Source: Ferrovibrio sp. (GTDB lineage Bacteria; Pseudomonadota; Alphaproteobacteria; Ferrovibrionales; Ferrovibrionaceae). Taken from it: a DNA stretch of 64,000 bases. This document shows, piece after piece, positions 3,557 to 62,456 of the stretch (positions are counted from its first letter, which is position 1; each line of letters starts with the position of its first letter). The notes below the pieces were generated by a model, which searched no databases, was not told the origin of the DNA, and was given only the letters and a program-made list of their open reading frames with translations. Both the position numbers and the translations under genes were made by a program. The DNA lies in contig NZ_JAHBYG010000019.1 in the NCBI RefSeq assembly GCF_019636075.1, forward strand, positions 2,494 to 66,493. The letters run 5' to 3'.

Positions 3557-4138
3557 ATGGCCAACGACAAGATTAAGCCGCATGCGCTGAATATCCCGAT
3601 CCCGGATCGCGCCAGCCTCGATCCGGCGACGCAAGCCTATTTCGCCAAATGCGACGAGAAGCTGGGCTTCGTGCCCAATGTGCTGCTGAGCTACAGCTTC
3701 GATGAGAAGAAGCTGCGCGGCTTCACCGAGATGTATAACGAATTGATGCTGGCGCCGTCTGGCCTGAGCAAGCTGGAACGCGAGATGATCGCGGTGGCGG
3801 TGAGCAGCATCAATCATTGCTATTACTGCCTCACCGCCCATGGCGCGGCGGTGCGCCAGCTATCGGGCGATCCGAAACTGGGCGAGCAGATGGTGATGAA
3901 TTATCGCGTGGCCGATTTGACGCCCAAGATGCGCGCCGCGCTGGATTTCGCCGCCAAGCTGACCGAGAGCCCGGACAAGATCGTGGAAGCCGACCGCCAG
4001 GCTTTGCGCGATGCCGGCTGGACCGACAAGGACATCTGGGATATCGCCGCCACCGCCAGCTTTTTCAACATGTCGAACCGCATGGCCGCCGCCATTGAGA
4101 TGGCGCCCAATGCGGAATACCATGGGCAAAGCCGTTAG
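3557..4138 (+). CDS. AhpD/CMD-like peroxidase-related enzyme
   Basis: REMIAVAVSSINHCYYCLTAHG (CxxC-H). The RBS and ATG are duplicated (alternative start 3539). Confidence 0.88.
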   Translation: MANDKIKPHALNIPIPDRASLDPATQAYFAKCDEKLGFVPNVLLSYSFDEKKLRGFTEMYNELMLAPSGLSKLEREMIAVAVSSINHCYYCLTAHGAAVRQLSGDPKLGEQMVMNYRVADLTPKMRAALDFAAKLTESPDKIVEADRQALRDAGWTDKDIWDIAATASFFNMSNRMAAAIEMAPNAEYHGQSR

Positions 4139-26614: not shown

Positions 26615-26655
26615 CGAGGTCGGTCCTTTCGGTTGCGTGATCATGTTATGTTCTT

Positions 26656-26901: not shown

Positions 26902-28607
26902 GCCGCACCTTCCATCATTTGCTGCAAGGCCGGCGCAGCCTGCTGCAGCATCGGCGCCAGCGCCGCCATCGGATCGGCCCCGATCTGCTGCTGCTGCTGC
27001 TGTTGTTGTGGCGGCTGAGGATCGGCGGGTTGTTCGCCGGCTTCGAGCAGGAATTCGCCGGGCACGCCGAGCGTGCGGCCGAGCCAGCGCGCCACGGCGG
27101 TCTTGTCCACCACCGCATCGGCGGCGGGGCCCAGCGCCTTGATCTGCTCCAGCCACATCAGGATGCCCTGGATGTCGGCCTGGCTTTGCACGCGCGCCAG
27201 CGGCGATTGATACGCCAGCTTCACCTCGCGGCCATCCAGGGCGAAATCCGGGATCTCGCCGCGCCGCTGCAGAATCTCCACCACGCGGTCGATCAGCGGG
27301 GTGAGGAATTCGCCTTGCAGCCGGCCGAACACCGCACCCAGCAACCGGGCCATTTCGGCGGCGCGTTCCAGCACTTCGGTGGCGCTCATCTTCGGTGCCG
27401 CCACCTGGCCCAACCGATCCACCAGCAGCGCATGGCGGATGCGGCCGCGCAGATCGTCGAGCACCAGTTGCGAGATATCGAAACGGCCCGGCGCGGCCAG
27501 CGGCGTAAGGCCCGACGAACCCACCGCCTTGGGAATGATGGCGCCCGGCACCAGCTTCACATTGGCGGGATTGAGCACGCCATCGTCATCGGCCTGCCAG
27601 ATCCCGGTGACGGCGATGGAGGCATTCTTCAACACCAGTTCCACCACCTTGTTGGCGGTCTTGATATCGGGCAATGCCTTCATCACCGGCGAACGGCCAT
27701 ACACATCGCCGGCGGCCTTGATCCAGCGGAAGGCGATGAACGGCGAGCGTTGGAAACGGCCGCGTTCCAAAAGCCCGCCTTGCAGCAGGCCGCCTTGCAT
27801 CAGACTATCGGCTTCGGCGCCATCCATGTCGTCTTCCAGCAGCGCGATGAAATCATAGCCGGCGGCGGACCTGCCGCCGCCTTCGCGCGGCAACACGCAT
27901 TCCAGCACGCCGATGCGGGTTTCGCCGTCGCTCTGCTTGCCCAGCCTGGCCACCACGGCGGCCGCTCTGGGATAACGCGCCAGCAATTGCTGCGGGCTGA
28001 GCCGGCGCTGCCGGAAAGCCACATCCAGCCGGCCGCTGGGGCCTTCTTCCAACACCACATCCTGGATCGGCACCGCCGTGAAACGCAGCACCGAGGGCGC
28101 ACCGAGTTCGGCTTCTTCCACCGCCAGGCAGGCGGTGCCGGCGGTTACCAGATCGAGATAGCATTGATGCGCCGCCACAGCGAAATCGGAGCGGTCGATA
28201 TGATTCTGCGCCCGGGCCGAAGCGCGATCCAGCAGGCTGGCGACCTCGCCCTGCATATCCGGCGCAATCTCCTCGCCCGGCTGAAAAGCGAACCAGCGCG
28301 ACCAGGGCGGCGTCAGCTGCGCCAGCAAGCTGGCAGCCAGTTGATCCACCGCATCGGCGGCCGTGCCATCGAACAGCGTGTCGGCGCGGCGGCCCGGCTG
28401 GTTATGGCTGCCCTGGCGACCGGACGATCCCACGCCATGCTGTTCGGAAGACAGCGGCAAGGTGTAGTCGAAGCAATCGCGCCAGCGGGTTTCCCAGGCC
28501 GAACGCGCCGCCTTGGCCTTGCGGAACCGCTCGCGCAGGTCGGTCGCCTGCGGATCGGCAATGTTGGCATCGGACATCGGGGGAAGGGTTTGCATGATCG
28601 GCCTCAT
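26898..28607 (-). CDS. Portal / head-tail connector (T7 gp8 family)
   Basis: LFDGTA..LTPPWSRWF, YGRSPVMKALPDIKTAN, MSATEVLER, YQSPLARVQ. The start may be 28577-28607. Confidence 0.93.
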   Translation of the reverse strand: MRPIMQTLPPMSDANIADPQATDLRERFRKAKAARSAWETRWRDCFDYTLPLSSEQHGVGSSGRQGSHNQPGRRADTLFDGTAADAVDQLAASLLAQLTPPWSRWFAFQPGEEIAPDMQGEVASLLDRASARAQNHIDRSDFAVAAHQCYLDLVTAGTACLAVEEAELGAPSVLRFTAVPIQDVVLEEGPSGRLDVAFRQRRLSPQQLLARYPRAAAVVARLGKQSDGETRIGVLECVLPREGGGRSAAGYDFIALLEDDMDGAEADSLMQGGLLQGGLLERGRFQRSPFIAFRWIKAAGDVYGRSPVMKALPDIKTANKVVELVLKNASIAVTGIWQADDDGVLNPANVKLVPGAIIPKAVGSSGLTPLAAPGRFDISQLVLDDLRGRIRHALLVDRLGQVAAPKMSATEVLERAAEMARLLGAVFGRLQGEFLTPLIDRVVEILQRRGEIPDFALDGREVKLAYQSPLARVQSQADIQGILMWLEQIKALGPAADAVVDKTAVARWLGRTLGVPGEFLLEAGEQPADPQPPQQQQQQQQIGADPMAALAPMLQQAAPALQQMMEGAA

Positions 28608-28816
28608 TCGCCCAGCAGCGTCTTACGGGCTTCGGCGCTGCCACCGTCGTTGCCGCCGGAGACGCCGCGATAGGAGGTGGCGATGGTTTCGCCCTGGGCG
28701 CGGCGGCGGCGTTCCCGCGCGATACGCTGCGCCTCTTCGTTGGGATCCTCGGGCTGCACCACCGGGGCTGCCGGAATGGGTGCCGGCGGCGAGGGGCTGC
28801 TGAAAATTCCGCCCAT
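28604..28816 (-). CDS. Small pre-portal phage protein (70 aa, ends KTLLGE)
   Basis: GGAGG RBS before MGGIFSSPSPP; its stop overlaps the portal start; first gene after the promoter. Confidence 0.75.
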   Translation of the reverse strand: MGGIFSSPSPPAPIPAAPVVQPEDPNEEAQRIARERRRRAQGETIATSYRGVSGGNDGGSAEARKTLLGE

Positions 28817-29353
28817 GATCTGCCTCCATCTTTCATGCCAGGCACGCAGCCGGCTGTTATTGATCCGCCAGGGCTGCCTTCCACCGGCTTGCAACCGGGA
28901 AGACAGATTTTGTTCCTGATATGTACTTTTATAATTGGATCGAATTCCTTCGTCAAGGGAAAACTCTCTTAGATAGCAAAAAAGTTTCCATGGTGTTCTA
29001 ATTGTATAATCCTGTAATCCTATAAGACGCTTCACCACCTCCACGCAGGTGAAAGCCACGGGCGGCGCCGGGCGTTCCGGCGGCATGCGCGCCTCCACTG
29101 TCAGCGCCATCCATCCGGCGCGGCGAAACGCAGCGGCCAGATCGGCTTGGCTGGGAAAATCGACCAGGTCGAGAACCAGCCGTTGCGACAACGGGTCCAG
29201 CGCGATCCAGCCGGCCCGGCTCAAACCGTAAGCAAAACAATGGCGGAATCCCGGCTTCAACAGACGTAAGTATTTGATCCTATTTTGTTCTGAAAACACC
29301 ACCACAACCCGCCCAATGCCCTGGTTTGCATAAGGCAGATCGGCCCATTTCAT
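28604..29353 (-). CDS. Putative permuted papain-like (His...Cys) protein reading in frame into the pre-portal protein
   Basis: VVVFS..LKPGFRHCF, W...DP, FTCVEVVKRLIG, TPWKLF; no stop before the 28816 start. Confidence 0.6.
   Translation of the reverse strand: MKWADLPYANQGIGRVVVVFSEQNRIKYLRLLKPGFRHCFAYGLSRAGWIALDPLSQRLVLDLVDFPSQADLAAAFRRAGWMALTVEARMPPERPAPPVAFTCVEVVKRLIGLQDYTIRTPWKLFCYLREFSLDEGIRSNYKSTYQEQNLSSRLQAGGRQPWRINNSRLRAWHERWRQIMGGIFSSPSPPAPIPAAPVVQPEDPNEEAQRIARERRRRAQGETIATSYRGVSGGNDGGSAEARKTLLGE
28912..28926. promoter_or_regulatory. Alphaproteobacterial LexA (SOS) box
   Basis: (T)GTTC-CTGATAT-GTAC, one mismatch to GTTC-N7-GTTC, 1 nt from the -10 hexamer. Confidence 0.65.
28928..28956 (-). 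promoter_or_regulatory. Near-consensus sigma70 promoter of the structural operon
   Basis: TTGACG-N17-TATAAA in an AT-rich patch, about 110 nt upstream of the first RBS. Confidence 0.75.
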
Positions 29354-29578
29354 CTTAATGGGATATTTAGATGGTATTGAATCACCTAATAAGGGTATCA
29401 TTTGACATGGATGTGGCATTTTCGGTGCAGTGGGGAGGTTTGCGTTTAACGGGGAATTGCGATCAGTCTGCTACTTTTTTTATATGTTGTAATATTAACC
29501 TGTATTGTTCTCATGTCAAACACTATTTTGGTGCATATTCCTGTAGCCAAAACGGCTACTCTGTGGGACGATGTTCCC

Positions 29579-30343
29579 ATGTTAACCCATAAAGCGATTT
29601 GGACCGCGATCGATGCCCTGGCCGAAAAGCATGGTCTGACTGCCTCCGGCCTGGCCCGCAAGGCGGGCCTCGATCCCACCACCTTCAACCGCAGCAAACG
29701 CGCGGCGCGGGATGGCAAACAGCGCTGGCCATCCACCGAGAGCATTGCCAAGGTGGTGGAAGCCACCGGCACCACCATGGCCGAATTCCTGGAAGTGCTG
29801 CTGGATAGCAGCGCCGGCGGCCGTGGCTCCGCCTTCCGCATCCCCACCGTGGATTTCCTCTCGCTCAATGGGCCGGAACAGCAACCCGGCCAGCCGGCAT
29901 TGCCGGGCGACCCGGAGCGGCTGCGGGCATTGTTCGATCCCGCCGGCCTGCCGATCCGCCAGATCGATCCAGCCAAACTTGATGCGGCCAAACTTGATAC
30001 AGCCAAGCTTGAAACAGCACGCAGTGCGGAATCCATCGCCTGGGATCTGCGGCCGTTTCCCGGGCTGCATGACGACCGGAGCTATGCCCTGGAGCTGAAT
30101 ACCCATGCCTTCGAGCCGCTCTATCGCCTGAACGCGGTGCTGATATTGTCGCCGCGCGCCGAAATCCGGCGCGGCGACCGCCTGCTGGCCGCCACCGTGG
30201 CCGGCGAATTCCTGCTCTGCGCCCTGGTGCGCAAAACCCTTACCCGGGTTGAAGTGTCGGATCTGAACAAGCCCGACCAGGAGCGCAGCTTCGATACATC
30301 GGAAATCGCCTGGCTGCACCGCATCGTCTGGGCCACGCAATAA
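29579..30343 (+). CDS. cI-like HTH repressor with degenerate S24 domain (COG2932 type)
   Basis: IWTAIDALAEKHGLTASGLARKAGLDPTTFNRSKR..RWPSTESIAKV; C-terminal YALE..EPLYR..IRRGDR..RIVWATQ. Confidence 0.9.
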   Translation: MLTHKAIWTAIDALAEKHGLTASGLARKAGLDPTTFNRSKRAARDGKQRWPSTESIAKVVEATGTTMAEFLEVLLDSSAGGRGSAFRIPTVDFLSLNGPEQQPGQPALPGDPERLRALFDPAGLPIRQIDPAKLDAAKLDTAKLETARSAESIAWDLRPFPGLHDDRSYALELNTHAFEPLYRLNAVLILSPRAEIRRGDRLLAATVAGEFLLCALVRKTLTRVEVSDLNKPDQERSFDTSEIAWLHRIVWATQ

Positions 30344-30348
30344 CCGCC

Positions 30349-33210
30349 ATGGCAGACCGCCCCATGCTCGATAGCGCATTGGCGCGTCTGCCCGTGTTGG
30401 TGAATGACGGCGTCGCCGCCATCTGGTGCGATCCAGGCCCGGATGGCGCGCTGGTGCCCGAACGGCTGGAGGCGGAAGCCGCCGGCCGCCGCGCCCGGGC
30501 CACGCCGCCGATGCTGGTGCATGGCCGTGCCACCGCCGCGCGGCTGGGGCTGAATCCGTTTCCGGCCTTCGACCTGCTGGACCTGTTCGCCTTCTGCCGG
30601 CCGGCGCGCTTCTGCCTGCCCACCGCGCGCGGCCTGCTGGAAGCATTGCAGATGCCGCTGCCGCAGGATGCGCTCGCGCTTGCCGCCAGCCTGCCGCGCG
30701 CAGCGCGCCGGCTGCTCGACGACCTCGGCCGCCTGGATGGCCGCGAGAAACGCCGCGCCTTGCGCATTGCCGGCGTGATGCAGAATGCCGGCTGGCCCTG
30801 GGCGCTGTATTGCATCGAGGCCATGGCGTCACGGGATGGCGGCGAGGCGATGCCGGCGCGCATCGGCCTGGATGTGTGGAACGAATTGCCGGAATGGGCG
30901 GATTTCGCGCCGCCGCCGCCGCCCGACACGCAATCGGTCAGCCCCGCCGAGGCGCGCGAACGTTTGCAGCGCCTGCTTGGGCCGCAAGCCGAAGACCGCG
31001 ATGCCCAGGCCGATTATGCCGCCATCACCGCCCAGGCCTTTGCACCGCGCGCCGAAATCGGCATGCCCGAACTGGTGTTGAGCGAAGCCGGCACCGGCAT
31101 CGGCAAGACCCTGGGCTATATCGCGCCGGCCAGCGTATGGGCGGAAAAGAATGGCGGCAGCGTGTGGCTGTCTACCTATACCAAGAATCTGCAGCGGCAA
31201 TTGGATCGCGAACTCGACAGGCTGTATCCCAATCCAACCGACAAGGCCACCAAGGTGGTGGTGCGCAAGGGCCGCGAAAATTACATCTGCCTGCTCAATC
31301 TGGAAGATGCCGCAGGCTATGCCGCCAGCAACGCCGCCGCGCGGCCGGCCGACAGCATCGCGCTGGGCCTGGTGGCGCGCTGGGTGCAGGCAACGCGCGA
31401 CGGCGATATTGCCGGCGGCGATTTCCCGGCCTGGATCGCCGATCTGCATGGCCGTGGCCGCACGCTGGGCCTCACCGATCAGCGCGGCGAATGCATCCAT
31501 GCCGCCTGCCCGCATTATCGCAAATGCTTCATCGAGCGCGGCCTGCGCCGGGCGCGGCGCGCCGAGATGGTGATCGCCAACCATGCCCTGGTGATGATCA
31601 ATGCCGCGCAAGGTGCGCAGGACGACGACGACGGCAACCGTCCGCTGCGCTATGTGTTCGACGAAGGCCATCACCTGTTCGATGCCGCCGATGGCGCTTT
31701 CGCCGCCCATCTCACCGGCCGCGAGGGCATGGAATTGCGGCGCTGGCTGCGTGGCCCGGAAGGCCCGCGCCGTAGTCGCGCCCGGGGCCTGGCCGCCCGC
31801 ATCGGCGATCTGGTGATGCATGACGAAGCCGGGCGCCGCGCGCTGGATGCGTTGGTGGAAGCCGGCCGCGCGCTGCCCGGCGAAGGCTGGCTGACCCGGC
31901 TGGCGGAAGGCAATGCATCCAGGGAAGAGAAAGCCTGCGAAGGCGAAGCCTTTCTGGCGCAGGCGCGGCTGATGATCCTGGCCCGCAGCCCGCAACCCGA
32001 CAGCCCCTATGGCCTGGAATGTCCGACGCGCGAAGCACCCACCGCGCTGCTGGATGCGGCGCTGGCCTTCGCCAATGCGATCAGCCGCATGCTGTCGCCC
32101 GCGGCCCAGCTTGCCAAGGCGCTGGCCGCCAAGCTGGACGACGATACCGCCGAACTGGATTCCGCCCAGCGCGGCCGGCTGGAAGGCGCGCTGCGCGGCC
32201 TGGCGCGCCGCAAACAAACGTTGGAAGCCTGGCGCAGCATGCTGCTGGCCTTGCAGACCGAAACGCCTGCTGATTTCGTCGATTGGTTCGCGCTGGAACG
32301 CGAGGCCGGCCATGATGCCGATCTCGGCCTGTATCGCCATTATCTCGATCCCATGTTGCCGTTTGCCGATGCGGTGATGAAGCCGGCCCATGGTCTGGCG
32401 ATCACGTCTGCCACCTTACGCGATCTCGATGCGAAGCAGAGCGAAGCCGCGCCCGAGCAAAGCTGGCACAGCGCCGAGATCCGCTCCGGTGCGCGCCATC
32501 TGCCGCTGCCGGCGCGGCGCGCGAGTTTTCCCTCGCCGTTCGATTATGCCGGTCGCACGCGCATCTTCGTGGTCACCGATGTGCGGCGCGACGACATGAA
32601 CCAGGTCGCTGCCGCCTATCGTGAATTATTCATGGCTGCCGGTGGCGGCGGATTGGGATTGTTCACCGCGATCTTCCGGTTGCGCGCGGTACAGAAACGC
32701 ATCGTCAAGCCGCTGGCCGACCAGGGCATCGCGCTTTATGCCCAACATGTCGATCCGCTGGATAACGCCACCCTGGTGGATATCTTCCGCGCCGAGGAGC
32801 ATTCCTGCCTGCTGGGCACCGATGCCATGCGCGATGGCGTGGATGTGCCGGGCAGCGCGCTGCGGCTGGCGGTGTTCGACCGCGTGCCCTGGCCGCGCCC
32901 GGATCTGTTGCACAAGGCGCGCCGCAACGCCTTCGGTGGCCAGGCTTACGACGATCTGCTCACCCGCCTGAAGCTGAAGCAGGCTTTCGGCCGGCTGCTG
33001 CGCCGCGCCGATGATTACGGCGTGTTCGTGGTGCTGGATGCGCAATTGCCTTCGCGCCTGCTCTCGGCCTTTCCGGCGCAAGTGGATGTGCGCCGCATCG
33101 GCATCAAGGAAGCCGTGAGCGAAACCCGCGCGTTTCTGCAGGGCATGCGGGGAGCGAATGTCAGCGGTAAACTTCGCGGCGATGGGCAACCCGCAGAATC
33201 AATATCGTGA
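30349..33210 (+). CDS. DinG/XPD-family Fe-S ATP-dependent DNA helicase
   Basis: EAGTGIGKT, KGRENYICL, CIHAACPHYRKCF, ANHAL, FDEGHHL, ITSATL, DGVDVPG, KQAFGRLLR. Confidence 0.93.
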   Translation: MADRPMLDSALARLPVLVNDGVAAIWCDPGPDGALVPERLEAEAAGRRARATPPMLVHGRATAARLGLNPFPAFDLLDLFAFCRPARFCLPTARGLLEALQMPLPQDALALAASLPRAARRLLDDLGRLDGREKRRALRIAGVMQNAGWPWALYCIEAMASRDGGEAMPARIGLDVWNELPEWADFAPPPPPDTQSVSPAEARERLQRLLGPQAEDRDAQADYAAITAQAFAPRAEIGMPELVLSEAGTGIGKTLGYIAPASVWAEKNGGSVWLSTYTKNLQRQLDRELDRLYPNPTDKATKVVVRKGRENYICLLNLEDAAGYAASNAAARPADSIALGLVARWVQATRDGDIAGGDFPAWIADLHGRGRTLGLTDQRGECIHAACPHYRKCFIERGLRRARRAEMVIANHALVMINAAQGAQDDDDGNRPLRYVFDEGHHLFDAADGAFAAHLTGREGMELRRWLRGPEGPRRSRARGLAARIGDLVMHDEAGRRALDALVEAGRALPGEGWLTRLAEGNASREEKACEGEAFLAQARLMILARSPQPDSPYGLECPTREAPTALLDAALAFANAISRMLSPAAQLAKALAAKLDDDTAELDSAQRGRLEGALRGLARRKQTLEAWRSMLLALQTETPADFVDWFALEREAGHDADLGLYRHYLDPMLPFADAVMKPAHGLAITSATLRDLDAKQSEAAPEQSWHSAEIRSGARHLPLPARRASFPSPFDYAGRTRIFVVTDVRRDDMNQVAAAYRELFMAAGGGGLGLFTAIFRLRAVQKRIVKPLADQGIALYAQHVDPLDNATLVDIFRAEEHSCLLGTDAMRDGVDVPGSALRLAVFDRVPWPRPDLLHKARRNAFGGQAYDDLLTRLKLKQAFGRLLRRADDYGVFVVLDAQLPSRLLSAFPAQVDVRRIGIKEAVSETRAFLQGMRGANVSGKLRGDGQPAESIS

Positions 33211-50195: not shown

Positions 50196-50328
50196 CGTTT
50201 TATTTGATGGCGGAAAGCGGTGGCGTTCTTCGCCCATTAAGATATGATTAAATGGATTAATGGTAGTTTGCGTGTATTGTGCTGCGCAACTAACTATAGC
50301 GTGGCTAAATCAAAGAAAGGAGGCGAAC

Positions 50329-51360
50329 GTGTCTACCAAGCAAATTCTCGCCCTCCTTAACTCGCATATCGACGGGGATGAAGATCAACTTTTGTCGATT
50401 GCTTTACAAATTGCGGCGCAGGAAGCTCGCCAAGGCCGGGCCGATGAAGCCGAAAAGCTCAAACGCCTTGTTCAAAAGGCCCGCGATCAACGCCGTATTG
50501 GAAAGCCTGCCGGAGGCCAAACACCCATCCCGCTGGCTCGACCGCGAGGCGAATTACAAGGTCTTGTTGAAAGCGCTTATCCGAAAGTTACACTTTCAAG
50601 CATGGTGCTGTCAGATGACATCGCCAAGCGGCTCGGGCGGATCATTCGTCAGCAAGAGGAGCGCGCAACTCTACGCGAACACGGCCAAACCCCAGCAACT
50701 CATATGCTGCTTGTCGGACCGCCCGGGACAGGCAAAACGATGACTGCTTCGGCGCTTGCTGGGGAATTACACCTACCGCTCTTCACGGTGCGGCTCGAAG
50801 CTTTATTCAGCCGGTTCCTCGGCGAAACCGCAAGCAAAATGCGCCTTCTGTTCGACCAGATTGCGCAAACGCGCGGTGTTTACCTTCTCGATGAATTCGA
50901 CGCGATCGGTGCGCGCCGCGGCGATCCAAACGATGTTGGCGAGATTCGTCGCGTGCTGAATTCTGTTTTAGCTTTTATGGAAGAGCCAAATTCGACTGAC
51001 AGCCTTGTTTTGGCGGCGACTAATCATGTTGAGATTCTGGACGAAGCTTTGGCGCGACGCTTCGATGAGGTGATCGAATATACACTACCAGACACCACAT
51101 CTGCGCGATCCATCATTGAACACCGCCTTGGCAAGTTCAAATTCAACACCAAGGCATGGTCTGCACTTGAGCCTGCAATTGACGGCCTCAGTCAAGGCGA
51201 ATTGGTTCGGGCTGCAGATGCCGTGGTGAAGGATGCTATCCTAGAAGGCTCGGCAAAGGTTTCACCGGAGACACTGCGAGCCGCTTTGGAAAACCGGCAA
51301 ACACTGAAGGATAAATTTCGTCGTCAATCCAAACGGTCGGCAGATATTATAAACGGATAA
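50329..51360 (+). CDS. AAA ATPase, IetA-like
   Basis: GPPGTGKT, YLLDEFDAIG, GEIRRVLNS, ATNH..LDEALARRFD; GTG start after AAAGGAGG. Confidence 0.9.
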   Translation: MSTKQILALLNSHIDGDEDQLLSIALQIAAQEARQGRADEAEKLKRLVQKARDQRRIGKPAGGQTPIPLARPRGELQGLVESAYPKVTLSSMVLSDDIAKRLGRIIRQQEERATLREHGQTPATHMLLVGPPGTGKTMTASALAGELHLPLFTVRLEALFSRFLGETASKMRLLFDQIAQTRGVYLLDEFDAIGARRGDPNDVGEIRRVLNSVLAFMEEPNSTDSLVLAATNHVEILDEALARRFDEVIEYTLPDTTSARSIIEHRLGKFKFNTKAWSALEPAIDGLSQGELVRAADAVVKDAILEGSAKVSPETLRAALENRQTLKDKFRRQSKRSADIING

Positions 51361-51390
51361 TCTAAAATTCGAGAAACGAGCAAAAAAAAT

Positions 51391-53934
51391 ATGGCGGAAC
51401 CAAATAATTTTGATACTAGAGATCGACCGCATATTTCCATTGACGCTTTTCGTGAGACTACAGATTATACCTTCCCACCACGCAATCAGAATCGCAAACC
51501 GCTTCGCGACGATTACGCCGCGCACGCCGCTCATCTTCTTAACCAACTCGCCGTAGCCCTCGGCGATGTTCCACAGCCAGCGAACGATACACGCCTCGCC
51601 ATTCAAGACCTAAGATCCGGTACGATTGTTGAGATTACGACAGTACCACCAAGCGAGGACTCTCGCACCAAAGCGGCTAAAATTCCAACAACACTGGAAT
51701 TTCCATCACAGGGCGTGGTGGTACTTCGTTCAGAGCGGAATGATGACAGGACTGAGAGTGCATTACTCTTCGTACCTGATGAGGCACGAATTTTCCTGGA
51801 AAGCAGGATTAGCGACTATGGGCGCGACCCCGGCAATAGACGACGCCCCGATATTGAACGATTCGAAATCGTTGAAACAATCCAGACAATTGACGCAAGA
51901 TCATTATTTACTGGAGAAGTGGACTTAACCTCACCGGAAATCGTGTGGTGGGAGTTTTGGATTCGTCAACCTATTGCTTTGGCAGATCACTTAACAGCCG
52001 CAGCCCACAAAGCAAACATCGATGTCCACAATGACCGTCTGATTTTCCCTGACACGACTGTACTCTTCTTCCATGCAGCCGCTGCAACAATAGCGAAATT
52101 TGCATCACAAGTACCCGGTGCAATCGCCGAAATTCGACGCGCGACAGGAACTATCGAGCCTTTCCTTGATCGTGGAGAGGCTGGAATTGGTCAACACGAA
52201 TGGATAGCGGATTTAGCTATGCGTGTCTCAGCTCCAGCCCAGGATACTCCTGTCGTCTGCACACTTGACACAGGTGTCGCCAGCGCTCATCCGCTGATTG
52301 CTCCAGGTCTGCGTGGTACATGGGCATACGATGCCGCCTGGGGTACCGACGATCACGCAGCCAATGGCGGACACGGTACGCCATTGGCTGGCTTGGTCCT
52401 TTACGGCGATCTCGAATCACTGATGAATGATAAACGCCCGGTTATGCTGACGCATGGCGTCGAATCCATGAAACTTTTACCTCCACTCGGCTTTCCACCA
52501 ACCAAGCCACCTAGCTATGGCGTCGTCACACAAGGTGCTGTCAGCATGGTTGAGATCGAGCGTCCCGCCGTGCTTCGTAGCTTTTGTATCGCGGCATCCA
52601 CAAGGGATTTTCCACCCAACCGTCCTTCGACATGGAGCGGCGCAATTGATCAGGCCGCCGCTGGCGCAATGCCTGGTGAAGCAGATGAGAAAATACAAGC
52701 TGCTAAGCGGACCAAGCGTTTAATTGCCGTCGCTACAGGTAACGTATCCGGTGGCAATGCGGTGGACGTTCTACCATCCCGGCCGCTGGAAGACCCCTCG
52801 CAAAGCTGGAACGCCCTGACTATCGGCGGCTTCACCCGCAAAGAACACCCCCCGGAACCGCCGCCTGTGTTCAGGGCCGTAGTGCCCGCAAACCACCGCA
52901 GCCCGTTCAGCTTAGGCTCACAATCTCTCCCCGATGATCTAACCCCTATCAAGCCCGAGGTATTGTTTGAGGCCGGCAACATGATGTCGGACGACACCGG
53001 CTTCTGTGGCTGGAACTCATCGGTATCACTTCTGTCGACCGGGTCAGATGTGACGGGCGAACCTTTAGTGCCATTCTTTGCAACCAGCGCCGCTGCCGCC
53101 ATGGCTGGTCATTTCATCGGGCGATTGCAAGCAACCCTGCCGGGCCTTTGGCCTGAAACGCATCGCGCACTTACCGTAGACTCGGCTCGCTGGCCAGAAC
53201 CTATCCGCAAGAAGTTCATCGGTCGAGGAGCACATTGGAAAGCAGGCTCGAAGGCAGAGAAGCAACAGCATCTGAGAGAATTTGGATACGGTGTTCCCGA
53301 CATTGATCGCGCAATCTTATCTGCTCGGAACGACGCAACATTGGTCGCGCAGGCCGAGATTCAACCCTATGCAATTGCCGCAGATGAGCGTAGCGGTGTA
53401 TTTAATGAGATGCATCTCTACAATTTACCCTGGCCAAAAACTGCGCTAGAAAACCTCGAAAATGAAATTGTCACGATGAAAGTCACACTCTCATATTTCA
53501 TCGAGCCAAATTTGACTGGCAAAGCCGCCACCAGGCCGGATACCTATCGCTCTTTTGGTCTTCGCTTCGATATGAAGAAGCGCACAGAAACTGATGCCCA
53601 CTTTCGCGGGCGGATTTCTGCCAGTCAATCGAGGGATGGTACGGAAACTGAGAGCGAGGCGAGTTATTGGCTGCTTGGACCGAAATCGATTCAAGCAGGC
53701 TCCCTCCATTGTGATCTCTGGCGTGGTCGCGCCATCGAACTAGCCGGACACAATGCTATTGCCGTTTTTCCAGTTGGTGGTTGGTGGAAATCACATATCG
53801 GACAAAAGCGCATGACCGATAAAGCGCGTTATGCGCTGGTCATTTCAATTTCTGCCCCTGGACAAGCCGTCGACCTCTACTCAGAAATCAGCACACTTGT
53901 GGAAGCAAAAAAAGTCGAAATTCCACTTGGTTAA
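51391..53934 (+). CDS. S8 subtilase, IetS-like
   Basis: LDTGV (Asp), HGTPLAG (His), ATSAAA (Ser), GYGVPD; paired with the AAA ATPase; visibly lower GC. Confidence 0.9.
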   Translation: MAEPNNFDTRDRPHISIDAFRETTDYTFPPRNQNRKPLRDDYAAHAAHLLNQLAVALGDVPQPANDTRLAIQDLRSGTIVEITTVPPSEDSRTKAAKIPTTLEFPSQGVVVLRSERNDDRTESALLFVPDEARIFLESRISDYGRDPGNRRRPDIERFEIVETIQTIDARSLFTGEVDLTSPEIVWWEFWIRQPIALADHLTAAAHKANIDVHNDRLIFPDTTVLFFHAAAATIAKFASQVPGAIAEIRRATGTIEPFLDRGEAGIGQHEWIADLAMRVSAPAQDTPVVCTLDTGVASAHPLIAPGLRGTWAYDAAWGTDDHAANGGHGTPLAGLVLYGDLESLMNDKRPVMLTHGVESMKLLPPLGFPPTKPPSYGVVTQGAVSMVEIERPAVLRSFCIAASTRDFPPNRPSTWSGAIDQAAAGAMPGEADEKIQAAKRTKRLIAVATGNVSGGNAVDVLPSRPLEDPSQSWNALTIGGFTRKEHPPEPPPVFRAVVPANHRSPFSLGSQSLPDDLTPIKPEVLFEAGNMMSDDTGFCGWNSSVSLLSTGSDVTGEPLVPFFATSAAAAMAGHFIGRLQATLPGLWPETHRALTVDSARWPEPIRKKFIGRGAHWKAGSKAEKQQHLREFGYGVPDIDRAILSARNDATLVAQAEIQPYAIAADERSGVFNEMHLYNLPWPKTALENLENEIVTMKVTLSYFIEPNLTGKAATRPDTYRSFGLRFDMKKRTETDAHFRGRISASQSRDGTETESEASYWLLGPKSIQAGSLHCDLWRGRAIELAGHNAIAVFPVGGWWKSHIGQKRMTDKARYALVISISAPGQAVDLYSEISTLVEAKKVEIPLG

Positions 53935-61494: not shown

Positions 61495-61715
61495 GCCGCC
61501 AGACTAGGGCCAGACCCGCCGCCGCGCAGCCGCCGCCAATATCCGCTTCTTGCGCAGCCATTCGGAAACAATCTTCCGGTGTGCCATCAAAGGCGAACTA
61601 TCCTGGCAATTGCATTTTTACCTTGACATGTTCTCTAATTGATCACATCTTATTACGAGCAATGACGCAGTTCTATGCGCGCATAATATAAAGTTTCGCA
61701 ACAGGGCCTTAATTC

Positions 61716-62456
61716 ATGCCGATTGACCCAACAAACCAATCCCCTGTTAAGCCTCCCGTTAGGCCCCCAGGCTATTTGCGCCGTTTGTGGCAAGCCCTAG
61801 GCCGCCACCGCGCCGGCCGCCTGCTGCGGCTGGCGATCATCGCCGTGACTGGCTGGGTAGCGGTGGAGGCGACGTCTGGCGTAAGTCGTGCTGGATACAA
61901 GGCATTGTTCATTGGCGATACCGAATTAGCCGTGTCATATGCGATTGAATATGCATTCGGTTTTCGTGTGCAAACGGATCGCGATGTTGCAGCGTGGTCA
62001 ACAGCGCCAGCTTATCCATTGCCGCCGGTCTGCCTTAGCGACCCACAGTATAGCAGCAATGGCCCCATGTATTTCCGGCTCGACGCTTGTTTGGGCGACA
62101 CAAACAATCCTGATCCGATCTTTCGAGAGCGCTGCAGATTCGGCGTGGCCTGGATATCTGGCTGTGGGTATCGAAGATATCACATGCATGTTTTGGAACA
62201 TCGGGAAAGCTTTGAACGGCTGGTATCCGCGATCAAGAATCCATGCCGCTATTTACCGTCGCCGGAAACAATTGATAGCGCCACGAATACCAGCGAGCCC
62301 AATGAAAAAGATCTGAAAATTGCATGGCGTGGCGCCGGCTGCGCCGGCAGTAAGCACACTACTCTTTTTTGGACTCAGCTGGAATTTGTAGATGTGAATG
62401 CAGAACCCAATTCTCCCAAGCGCAAGATCATCATGATGATCCCGACTGGAGAATGA
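61716..62456 (+). CDS. Membrane-anchored Cys-rich hypothetical protein (immunity-like candidate)
   Basis: One TM (IIAVTGWVAV), then a Cys-rich domain; low GC. Confidence 0.7.
   Translation: MPIDPTNQSPVKPPVRPPGYLRRLWQALGRHRAGRLLRLAIIAVTGWVAVEATSGVSRAGYKALFIGDTELAVSYAIEYAFGFRVQTDRDVAAWSTAPAYPLPPVCLSDPQYSSNGPMYFRLDACLGDTNNPDPIFRERCRFGVAWISGCGYRRYHMHVLEHRESFERLVSAIKNPCRYLPSPETIDSATNTSEPNEKDLKIAWRGAGCAGSKHTTLFWTQLEFVDVNAEPNSPKRKIIMMIPTGE

Follow-up and report, generated by a model that had tools for sequence, protein, structure and literature searches.

Phages with LexA sites in their antirepressor, co-repressor or lytic promoters are known (PMC9437464), and a passage of the same source, citing Fornelos et al. 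2016, names coliphage 186 (tum), CTX-phi (rstA), Bacillus phage GIL01 and the antirepressor of Salmonella phage SPC32H among the LexA-controlled mobile elements. The locus investigated here lies in a 64,000-nucleotide stretch of Ferrovibrio sp. DNA (contig NZ_JAHBYG010000019.1; the whole stretch is called the window). It consists of about 14 kb of T7/BPP-1-like head, tail and lysis genes together with a repressor gene (15.3-29.6 kb), and a box resembling a LexA operator, box A, is found at the promoter in front of its sm70 and portal genes. As in the LexA-controlled phages, a site for the host's LexA within a phage promoter would tie the lytic programme to RecA activation. In those phages, however, LexA mostly gates a regulator (antirepressor, co-repressor or early genes), whereas the boxes in the window are located on the virion and lysis promoter and inside the operon; the element in the window further differs in having no replication or integration genes and in possessing a repressor of its own without self-cleavage.

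Colicin operons and some bacteriocin operons carry LexA operators directly on the lethal production-and-lysis operon. The window resembles them in a putative direct LexA control of an operon that ends in lysis, but its product would be a phage-like particle instead of a toxin, and its operator is of another type. The gene transfer agent (GTA) RcGTA is likewise a cluster of head, tail and lysis genes without replication genes, vertically inherited under purifying selection and equipped with a holin of the GTA_holin_3TM family. RcGTA is of HK97-type siphovirus ancestry, whereas the module in the window is an unrelated, T7/BPP-1-like podovirus module. The window cluster also differs from RcGTA in having no conserved CtrA site, control apparently being exerted by a CI-like repressor and direct LexA boxes; CtrA control was rejected, as the sole TTAA-N7-TTAA-like site (29355) deviates at one position and lacks conservation. 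An SOS/LexA link to GTA production is known for Rhodobacter. For Dinoroseobacter such a link is discussed (PMC6473078). A literature search found neither a T7-like GTA-type cluster nor the LexA control of such a cluster described.

The LexA motif of the Alphaproteobacteria is GTTC-N7-GTTC (PMC3323433, PMC9578287). Box A shares with the operators of the Caulobacter crescentus SOS regulon, Rhodobacter and Rhizobium the direct repeat, a T-rich spacer of 7 nucleotides, a T before the second repeat and the overlap with the core promoter, and only two positions separate it from the Caulobacter CCNA_01600 operator (GTTCTTGATATGTTC). Unlike the Caulobacter operators, box A has a GTAC core and the other boxes of its clade have GATC, and the score of box A lies at or below the bottom of the range of bound operators. 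The reading favoured here, with a probability of about 0.58, is that a weak LexA operator overlies the start of a conserved sigma-70 promoter and contributes, together with further operators, to LexA control of the particle and lysis operon, beside a repressor that can no longer be cleaved.

The conserved promoter preceding sm70 and portal

The features on which the analysis centres are the following (coordinates refer to the window).

28956-28951, minus strand: -35 hexamer TTGACG, read from the sequence, heading the sm70/portal promoter
28933-28928, minus strand: -10 hexamer TATAAA, 17 nucleotides from the -35 hexamer and without the usual final T
28912-28926: LexA-like box A, GTTCCTGATATGTAC on the plus strand (GTTC-N7-GTAC)
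28816-28604, minus strand: sm70, small conserved protein (MGGIFSS...; phrog_831), ribosome-binding site GGAGG at 28827-28823, stop codon overlapping the portal ATG (ATGA)
28607-26898, minus strand: portal protein (head-tail connector; PF12236, E = 1e-133)
about 29299-28990, minus strand: up114, conserved protein (GFRHCF...FTCVEVVKR...TPW), present in every related locus
29519-29491, minus strand: repressor-proximal promoter TTGACA-N16-TAATAT, from a promoter scan
29579-30343, plus strand: HTH254, CI-like repressor with an Xre-type helix-turn-helix and a degenerate S24 domain, divergent from the cluster

Reading of the sequence confirmed TTGACG-N17-TATAAA, followed by GTAC-N7-GAAC, on the minus strand at the positions given by the first-pass annotation. 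In minus-strand order TATAAA is followed by A (28927), GTAC (28926-28923), ATATCAG (28922-28916) and GAAC (28915-28912); the 17-nucleotide promoter spacer is aaggaattcgatccaat and the whole promoter with box A reads cccTTGACGaaggaattcgatccaatTATAAAaGTACATATCAGGAACaaaatc. The two hexamers agree with the sigma-70 consensus at 10 of 12 positions, the spacer is within 16-18 nucleotides, and the expected transcription start is near 28921. The pattern TTGAC-N17-19-TATAA occurred once on both strands of the 64 kb (0.02 expected), and a generic promoter scan skipped this site solely because it required T at the last -10 position. The -35 hexamer is flanked by an inverted repeat TTCC...GGAA (TTCCCTTGACGAAGGAA). 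A structured 5' untranslated region at this promoter was unsupported (z = -1.4). The promoter in front of sm70/portal is judged to be real. It heads an operon that runs from sm70 and portal to the holin gene, and to this extent the annotation of a promoter at the start of the phage operon was correct, but it is not the first promoter of the element, as up114 and the repressor-proximal promoter lie upstream of it.

Orthologous loci were fetched via the repressor protein and comprised L075/76 (same species), L021-24/L074 (70%, the identity of the best BLASTP alignment), L025-27 (64%) and L028-30 (65%); the flanking helicase and DAGK genes were present in all of them. A block of 24 nucleotides, GTTCCTGAYATGTACTTTTATAAT, comprising the box and the -10 hexamer, was unchanged except for one spacer base in the window, L075/76, L021, L025 and L029. 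This spacer base of box A is T in the window strain alone and C in all other lineages, while both half-sites were identical across the five lineages. The -35 hexamer read TTGACG, TTGACC or TTGATC, the promoter spacer was constant in length (17 nucleotides) and variable in sequence, and the DNA just downstream of box A was different in every lineage. The block was intact even in the reduced cluster of L025. Conservation in orthologous clusters, which had been proposed as a check, was thus observed for the block and the spacer length in five lineages with divergent flanks.

In the window the promoter lies within an open frame of 271 codons, in which up114 continues into sm70 without a stop. The two genes share one uninterrupted frame (28604-29419, minus strand) in the window, L025, L029 and L075, one annotation of which is a 249-amino-acid gene; a stop codon follows up114 in L021 and L031, and the linker between up114 and sm70 has no coding signature. 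Codon periodicity was absent from the promoter stretch (variable columns 22/21/27, versus 28/17/58 in the coding DNA of up114), so that the conservation cannot be put down to coding constraint. It is regulatory, and by this comparison the promoter is a phylogenetic footprint.

Box A and the neighbouring LexA-like boxes

Box A agrees with GTTC-N7-GTTC at 7 of the 8 core bases, the one mismatch, already annotated as such, being T to A at the third base of the second repeat. It begins 1 nucleotide past the -10 hexamer and spans about -2 to +10 around the expected start. That the promoter and the box are AT-rich intergenic DNA of chance resemblance, neither being functional, could be argued from the location within the open frame and from the frequency of the bare motif: GTTC-N7-GTTC with one mismatch allowed gave 38 matches in the window, compared to 24.9 expected. 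The bare one-mismatch consensus is nearly uninformative in the window, so that the argument has to rely on a weighted matrix and on the comparison with relatives. An origin by chance is nevertheless highly improbable, considering the expectation of 0.02 for the promoter pattern, the block-wise footprint with fixed spacer length and no codon periodicity, and the family-wide enrichment of boxes described below.

The position weight matrix (PWM) used here was built from 32 Caulobacter LexA boxes with chromatin immunoprecipitation peaks (PMC12700426 S6 table), which themselves scored 14.3-25.2 bits. With this matrix, which is that of Caulobacter and not of the host, box A scored 16.05 bits and ranked third among 127,972 window positions; 0.2 positions with at least 16 bits were expected in the whole window. 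The first two ranks were occupied by boxes B and C of the same cluster, and three of the four top matches in 64 kb fell inside the phage-derived cluster. One core mismatch was also present in 5 of the 32 bound Caulobacter boxes, in one case at the position altered in box A (GTCC). Box A is probably a LexA operator, to judge from its sequence, and a weak one because of the conserved GTAC half-site. The further boxes of the cluster are listed here.

29276-29290: box B, GATCCTATTTTGTTC, 16.8 bits, PWM rank 1, at codons 5-9 of up114
26639-26653: box C, GATCATGTTATGTTC, 16.2 bits, PWM rank 2, in the 41-nucleotide gap between the Bbp19-like and scaffold genes
28984-28998: box D, GTTTCCATGGTGTTC, 9.4 bits, about 30 nucleotides upstream of the -35 hexamer, at the 3' end of up114
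29495-29509: decayed box, TAACCTGTATTGTTC (TAAC-N7-GTTC), in the spacer of the repressor-proximal promoter

Box B is part of a 40-nucleotide block with 100% identity among 7 sequences; as the box is coding, its role is ambiguous. The L021 counterpart of box C (GATCTTGATATGTTC) retained the half-sites with an altered spacer, and equivalent boxes were found in L031 and L036. At the position of box D, perfect boxes are present in L021 (GTTCCCATGATGTTC, 19.1 bits) and in L031 (16.0 bits). The position homologous to the decayed box in L031 is occupied by ATTCCTATTATGTTC (17.1 bits). An independent repeat search returned boxes A and B and the decayed box of the upstream promoter in register. Boxes A to D each show one T-to-A core change, and the other boxes of the window's clade use GATC instead of GTAC.

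A further LexA-like box, GTTCTCTAATTGATC (13.4 bits, with the GATC half-site of boxes B and C), was found elsewhere in the window one base after a consensus -35 hexamer TTGACA (61623-61644, plus strand). It lies about 70 nucleotides upstream of a 246-amino-acid gene (61716-62456) at the boundary of an island of low GC (61.7-64 kb, GC 0.49-0.52), and the gene divergent from it (61494-60667) encodes a DNA-damage-associated oxygenase (PF09859, 'Oxygenase-NA'). The site may be an SOS promoter of the host or of the island, and its sequence hints that the LexA of the window's host accepts GATC. Neither lexA nor recA was found in the window or in the fetched loci by tblastn with E. coli LexA and RecA, and tblastn of LexA against the PLSDB plasmids returned enterobacterial umuD and lexA only.

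LexA-grade boxes in the family of related loci

Scans with the portal protein yielded 20 genomic loci and 43 viral-contig loci. No record of the exact portal protein was found. In most of the portal relatives above about 50% identity whose loci reach far enough upstream, as L002 and L006 do not, the gene order was repressor, divergent promoter, early gene, up114, sm70 and portal. The repressor-proximal promoter of distant loci carries the signature CCTTGAC(A/G)(T/A)AGGA(A/T), an inverted repeat TCCT...AGGA around the -35 hexamer. In the window the corresponding region is 28945-28961. A second motif, (T/C)AGGAA(C/T), lies 20-25 nucleotides upstream of the signature. The signature was found with or without LexA boxes and is, on its sequence, a candidate operator of the element's own repressor.

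LexA-grade boxes after or inside the repressor-proximal promoter were found in L001, L005, L007, L015, L031, L037, L038 and L043, and the GTAC variant seen in box A directly followed this promoter in L004, L016 and L034. Boxes between up114 and sm70, the position of box A, were present in L001 (GTTCTTGATATGTTC, 24.3 bits) and L041/42 (GTTCTTGATTTGTTC, 24.9 bits), both of which are letter-for-letter Caulobacter operators; weaker ones were present in L036 (17.9 bits) and L031 (13.9 bits). Boxes between the portal and scaffold genes could be observed in L021, L031 and L036. Regulatory DNA of these loci (29.5 kb) contained 24 matches of at least 14.3 bits (0.81 per kb), compared to 9 (0.032 per kb) in the other 280 kb of the loci. 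When one locus per close group was retained (19 non-redundant loci), 19 matches of at least 14.3 bits were counted in 25 kb of regulatory DNA against 0.55 expected from dinucleotide-preserving shuffles (maximum 5 of 300). LexA-type boxes are thus about 25- to 35-fold enriched in the regulatory DNA of the element family. The annotation of a LexA-type box at the start site gains from this enrichment and from the perfect boxes at the same promoter in relatives; the box in the window itself appears weak, with a sister allele of 12.7 bits.

A different regulator, HTH254 or another protein, might bind GTAC-N7-GAAC, the likeness to LexA sites being coincidental or reflecting competition for the same DNA. 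The divergent repressor gene of the element lies upstream, the sister allele holds a small palindrome, ACATGT, and neither GTAC nor GATC half-sites occurred among the 32 Caulobacter boxes. However, the boxes in other family members are exact Caulobacter LexA operators including the spacer preferences. In addition, no boxes were found in L003, L008, L009, L018 and L040, and four of these five loci (L003, L008, L009 and L018) retain the repressor, with its conserved N-terminal domain, and three (L003, L008 and L009) retain the signature (C)(C)TTGA-(C/T)-A-(C/T)-AGGA. This shows the boxes to be an add-on read by something other than the repressor, and not the operator of the repressor itself. An Xre-type helix-turn-helix is also not expected to share the specificity of the LexA winged helix, which counts against HTH254 as the binding protein. 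An operator for a protein other than LexA is thus regarded as unlikely.

From the distribution of the boxes, LexA wiring is ancestral in the element family. LexA boxes also occur in members that have retained the early gene and a repressor still capable of self-cleavage, and LexA is used by free temperate phages as well (PMC9437464), so that the annotated use of LexA wiring as support for domestication had to be given up. The early gene (about 125 amino acids; PF.SAEEAWFWF...RPCEP.D...KGIV) lies behind the LexA-boxed repressor-proximal promoter in L001 (4912-5277), L005, L007, L037, L038, L043 and others. Its protein had no Pfam match and is a candidate activator or antirepressor, judging from its position. 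The early gene was absent from the window, L021, L025, L029 and L031. In L001, a locus of a Magnetospirillum metagenome-assembled genome, a third perfect box was observed directly downstream of the repressor gene (4113-4127, GTTCGCATTATGTTC, 21.4 bits). The states found in the family can be ordered from an intact repressor with early gene and perfect boxes, through loss of the early gene and then a dead repressor with weak boxes, to partial deletion of the cluster.

The repressor HTH254 and the possible remaining damage input

HTH254 resembles the lambda CI and LexA S24 repressors in its N-terminal helix-turn-helix, its C-terminal S24 fold and its divergence from the lytic operon; it is unlike them in that the cleavage site, Ser and Lys are replaced, whereas its distant orthologues keep all three. 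The Pfam S24 score of HTH254 was under threshold. In the window, L021, L025 and L029 the repressor had neither the Ala-Gly site of cleavage nor the nucleophilic Ser nor the Lys base: AQAG was replaced by LSLNGP or similar, GDSM by NTHAF and variants (Ser to Ala, Arg or Lys), and Lys by Cys, Ala or Ser. All three determinants of self-cleavage were kept in L031 and the distant loci, and the N-terminal domain of the element repressor is highly conserved. The closest named relatives of HTH254, as of up114, are from Ferrovibrio. An insert with KLD repeats (PAKLDAAKLDTAKLE) in HTH254 is specific to the lineage. The gene of a DinG-family helicase (30349-33210) starts 5 nucleotides past the HTH254 stop codon and is not adjacent to the repressor in distant loci; this spacing suggests that the two genes form one operon.

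With its self-cleavage determinants lost, HTH254 can no longer sense RecA activation, and since the early gene is missing as well, any remaining SOS input must pass through the LexA boxes A to D. The first-pass annotation had proposed that the virion genes are wired directly to the host SOS regulon. The missing early gene and the non-cleavable repressor speak for this proposal, but it has to be qualified, as a repressor gene of the element is still present divergently upstream.

Several points weigh against a functional LexA operator at box A. The A at the altered core position was found in 0 of 32 Caulobacter operators. The sister-lineage allele (GTTCCTGACATGTAC) scored 12.7 bits, under the weakest training operator (14.3 bits), and 16.0 bits were reached by the window's own strain only. 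The matrix was derived from Caulobacter and not from promoters of the window genome. The loci compared are phylogenetically related, which inflates the box counts, and the conserved block overlaps the -10 hexamer and the start, so that some of the conservation might be due to promoter function alone. Four RNA-labelled wastewater or bioreactor runs provided sparse, unstranded, low-depth Logan contigs with no 5' ends. Finally, a decayed repressor-proximal box beside a non-cleavable repressor could mean uncoupling from SOS rather than wiring to it.

The last point leads to the strongest rival explanation, in which the promoter is real, the box is a decayed relic, and the cluster is uncoupled from SOS and controlled by non-cleavable HTH254 and an unknown signal, in the manner of a lambda ind- prophage. 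Such a history would fit the clade's ancestral allele, which lies below all 32 bound Caulobacter boxes, the decay to TAAC-N7-GTTC where L031 retains its 17.1-bit box, the loss of all three self-cleavage determinants, the deleted early gene and the L025 cluster without its scaffold-to-terminase genes. A relic would, however, be expected to drift, whereas a single spacer position of box A varies across five lineages next to downstream DNA that is free to change. Boxes B and C hold both half-sites at 16-17 bits, box C despite an altered spacer, and three of the four best matches in the window sit in the cluster. The purifying selection on the structural genes, described below, also means that some induction route must exist. 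A relic box is considered less likely than a weak but functional operator, with a chance of perhaps one in four.

According to that preferred reading, a LexA dimer on box A would block RNA polymerase in the undamaged cell, aided by boxes D, B and C. DNA damage would activate RecA and thereby LexA self-cleavage, the promoter would be freed, and particle production and lysis by holin and endolysin would be coupled to SOS. HTH254 would probably act as a second lock at the AGGA-type inverted repeat around the -35 hexamer, and as it appears non-cleavable in the window's clade, LexA would be left as the sole sensor of damage. Occupancy by LexA, the position of the transcription start, induction by damage and the HTH254 operator are what we infer from the DNA sequence.

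Genes of the cluster and signs of domestication

The remaining genes of the cluster, from the portal gene onwards, are as follows.

26901-26656, minus strand: Bbp19-like small protein; the L021/L074 orthologue matches PF25181
26614-25859, minus strand: scaffold (T7 capsid assembly protein; PF05396)
25716-24808, minus strand: major capsid protein (PF19821, E = 1e-79)
24764-21347, minus strand: p89 (phrog_18004), tail tubular protein A (gp11-like), nozzle (gp12-like) and gp14-like internal virion protein
21331-18848, minus strand: tail fibre with collagen repeats and carbohydrate-binding-like domains
18554-16899, minus strand: large terminase
16845-16126, minus strand: endolysin
16116-15688, minus strand: holin with three transmembrane segments, GTA_holin_3TM family, at the cluster end, followed by DUF952 and pyrD

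The neighbours of the cluster are pyrD and DUF952 at one end, and helicase, rplU, obg and proBA at the opposite end. It contains no genes for replication, integration or RNA polymerase. The nearest isolated relatives of the particle genes are pelagiphages, with 35% portal identity, and near-identical DNA was found in wastewater, sludge and soil metagenomes. Homologues of sm70 precede the portal gene in nearly all loci; an alternative open reading frame at 28623-28829 was rejected as the small gene before portal, being in the wrong frame. The up114 proteins (about 115-170 amino acids) have invariant G-x-RHC and CV motifs, and each of the 69 homologues in the database bears the annotation hypothetical. 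For up114 neither a Pfam nor a PHROG family was found, isolated phages contained no homologue, and its AF2 model, with a pLDDT of 91, had no fold match in the PDB. The tail fibre contains five collagen triple-helix stretches and weak CBM_5_12 and F5/8 type C matches, with a GC peak of 0.73. Outside the cluster, a low-GC stretch (50260-53934, plus strand, GC 0.49-0.56) encodes an AAA+ ATPase (366 amino acids) followed by a subtilase-family S8 peptidase (847 amino acids); it looks like an acquired island, possibly with a role in defence.

The cluster of L074 occupies the same chromosomal position (helicase/DAGK/rplU/rpmA/obg/proB/proA block) and has the same gene order. Values of dS were 0.23-0.6 for the cluster genes compared to 0.26-0.40 for the host neighbours. 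Values of dN/dS were 0.11-0.12 for capsid, p89 and gp11 and 0.22-0.29 for portal, nozzle, gp14 and scaffold, compared to 0.09-0.13 for the host neighbours. The L025 lineage has deleted the scaffold-to-terminase genes, leaving sm70, portal, a 110-amino-acid open reading frame, endolysin and holin (L025 1-3300); its portal gene is relaxed (dN/dS about 0.5), and its holin (0.04) and endolysin (0.15) are still constrained. These comparisons support a long vertical residence of the cluster under purifying selection, and this support for domestication is independent of the LexA question.

Meaning for the element family

A tentative proposal, with the odds somewhat against it, is that the cluster belongs to an undescribed class of domesticated podovirus-derived particles, GTA-like or tailocin-like and unrelated to RcGTA, which would be SOS-triggered via host LexA at several operators. 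The class would comprise T7/BPP-1-like clusters of roughly 14 kb in Ferrovibrio, Magnetospirillum, Azospirillum, Thalassospira and other Alphaproteobacteria, with a CI-like repressor and two family-specific proteins, up114 and the early protein with its AEEAWFW motif. RcGTA-type agents are rare in Rhodospirillales-type bacteria. If LexA control as proposed here is true, the whole virion-plus-lysis operon of a replication-less remnant would answer the host SOS response directly through several operators. The cluster would then be a natural example of a regulatory hand-over from phage to host during domestication, in which the element's own repressor gave up its damage sensor. Mitomycin C or ultraviolet light would be the trigger for asking whether T7-like clusters of this kind make particles or move host DNA, and the states observed in the family form a series in which the gain, movement and loss of LexA operators can be studied.

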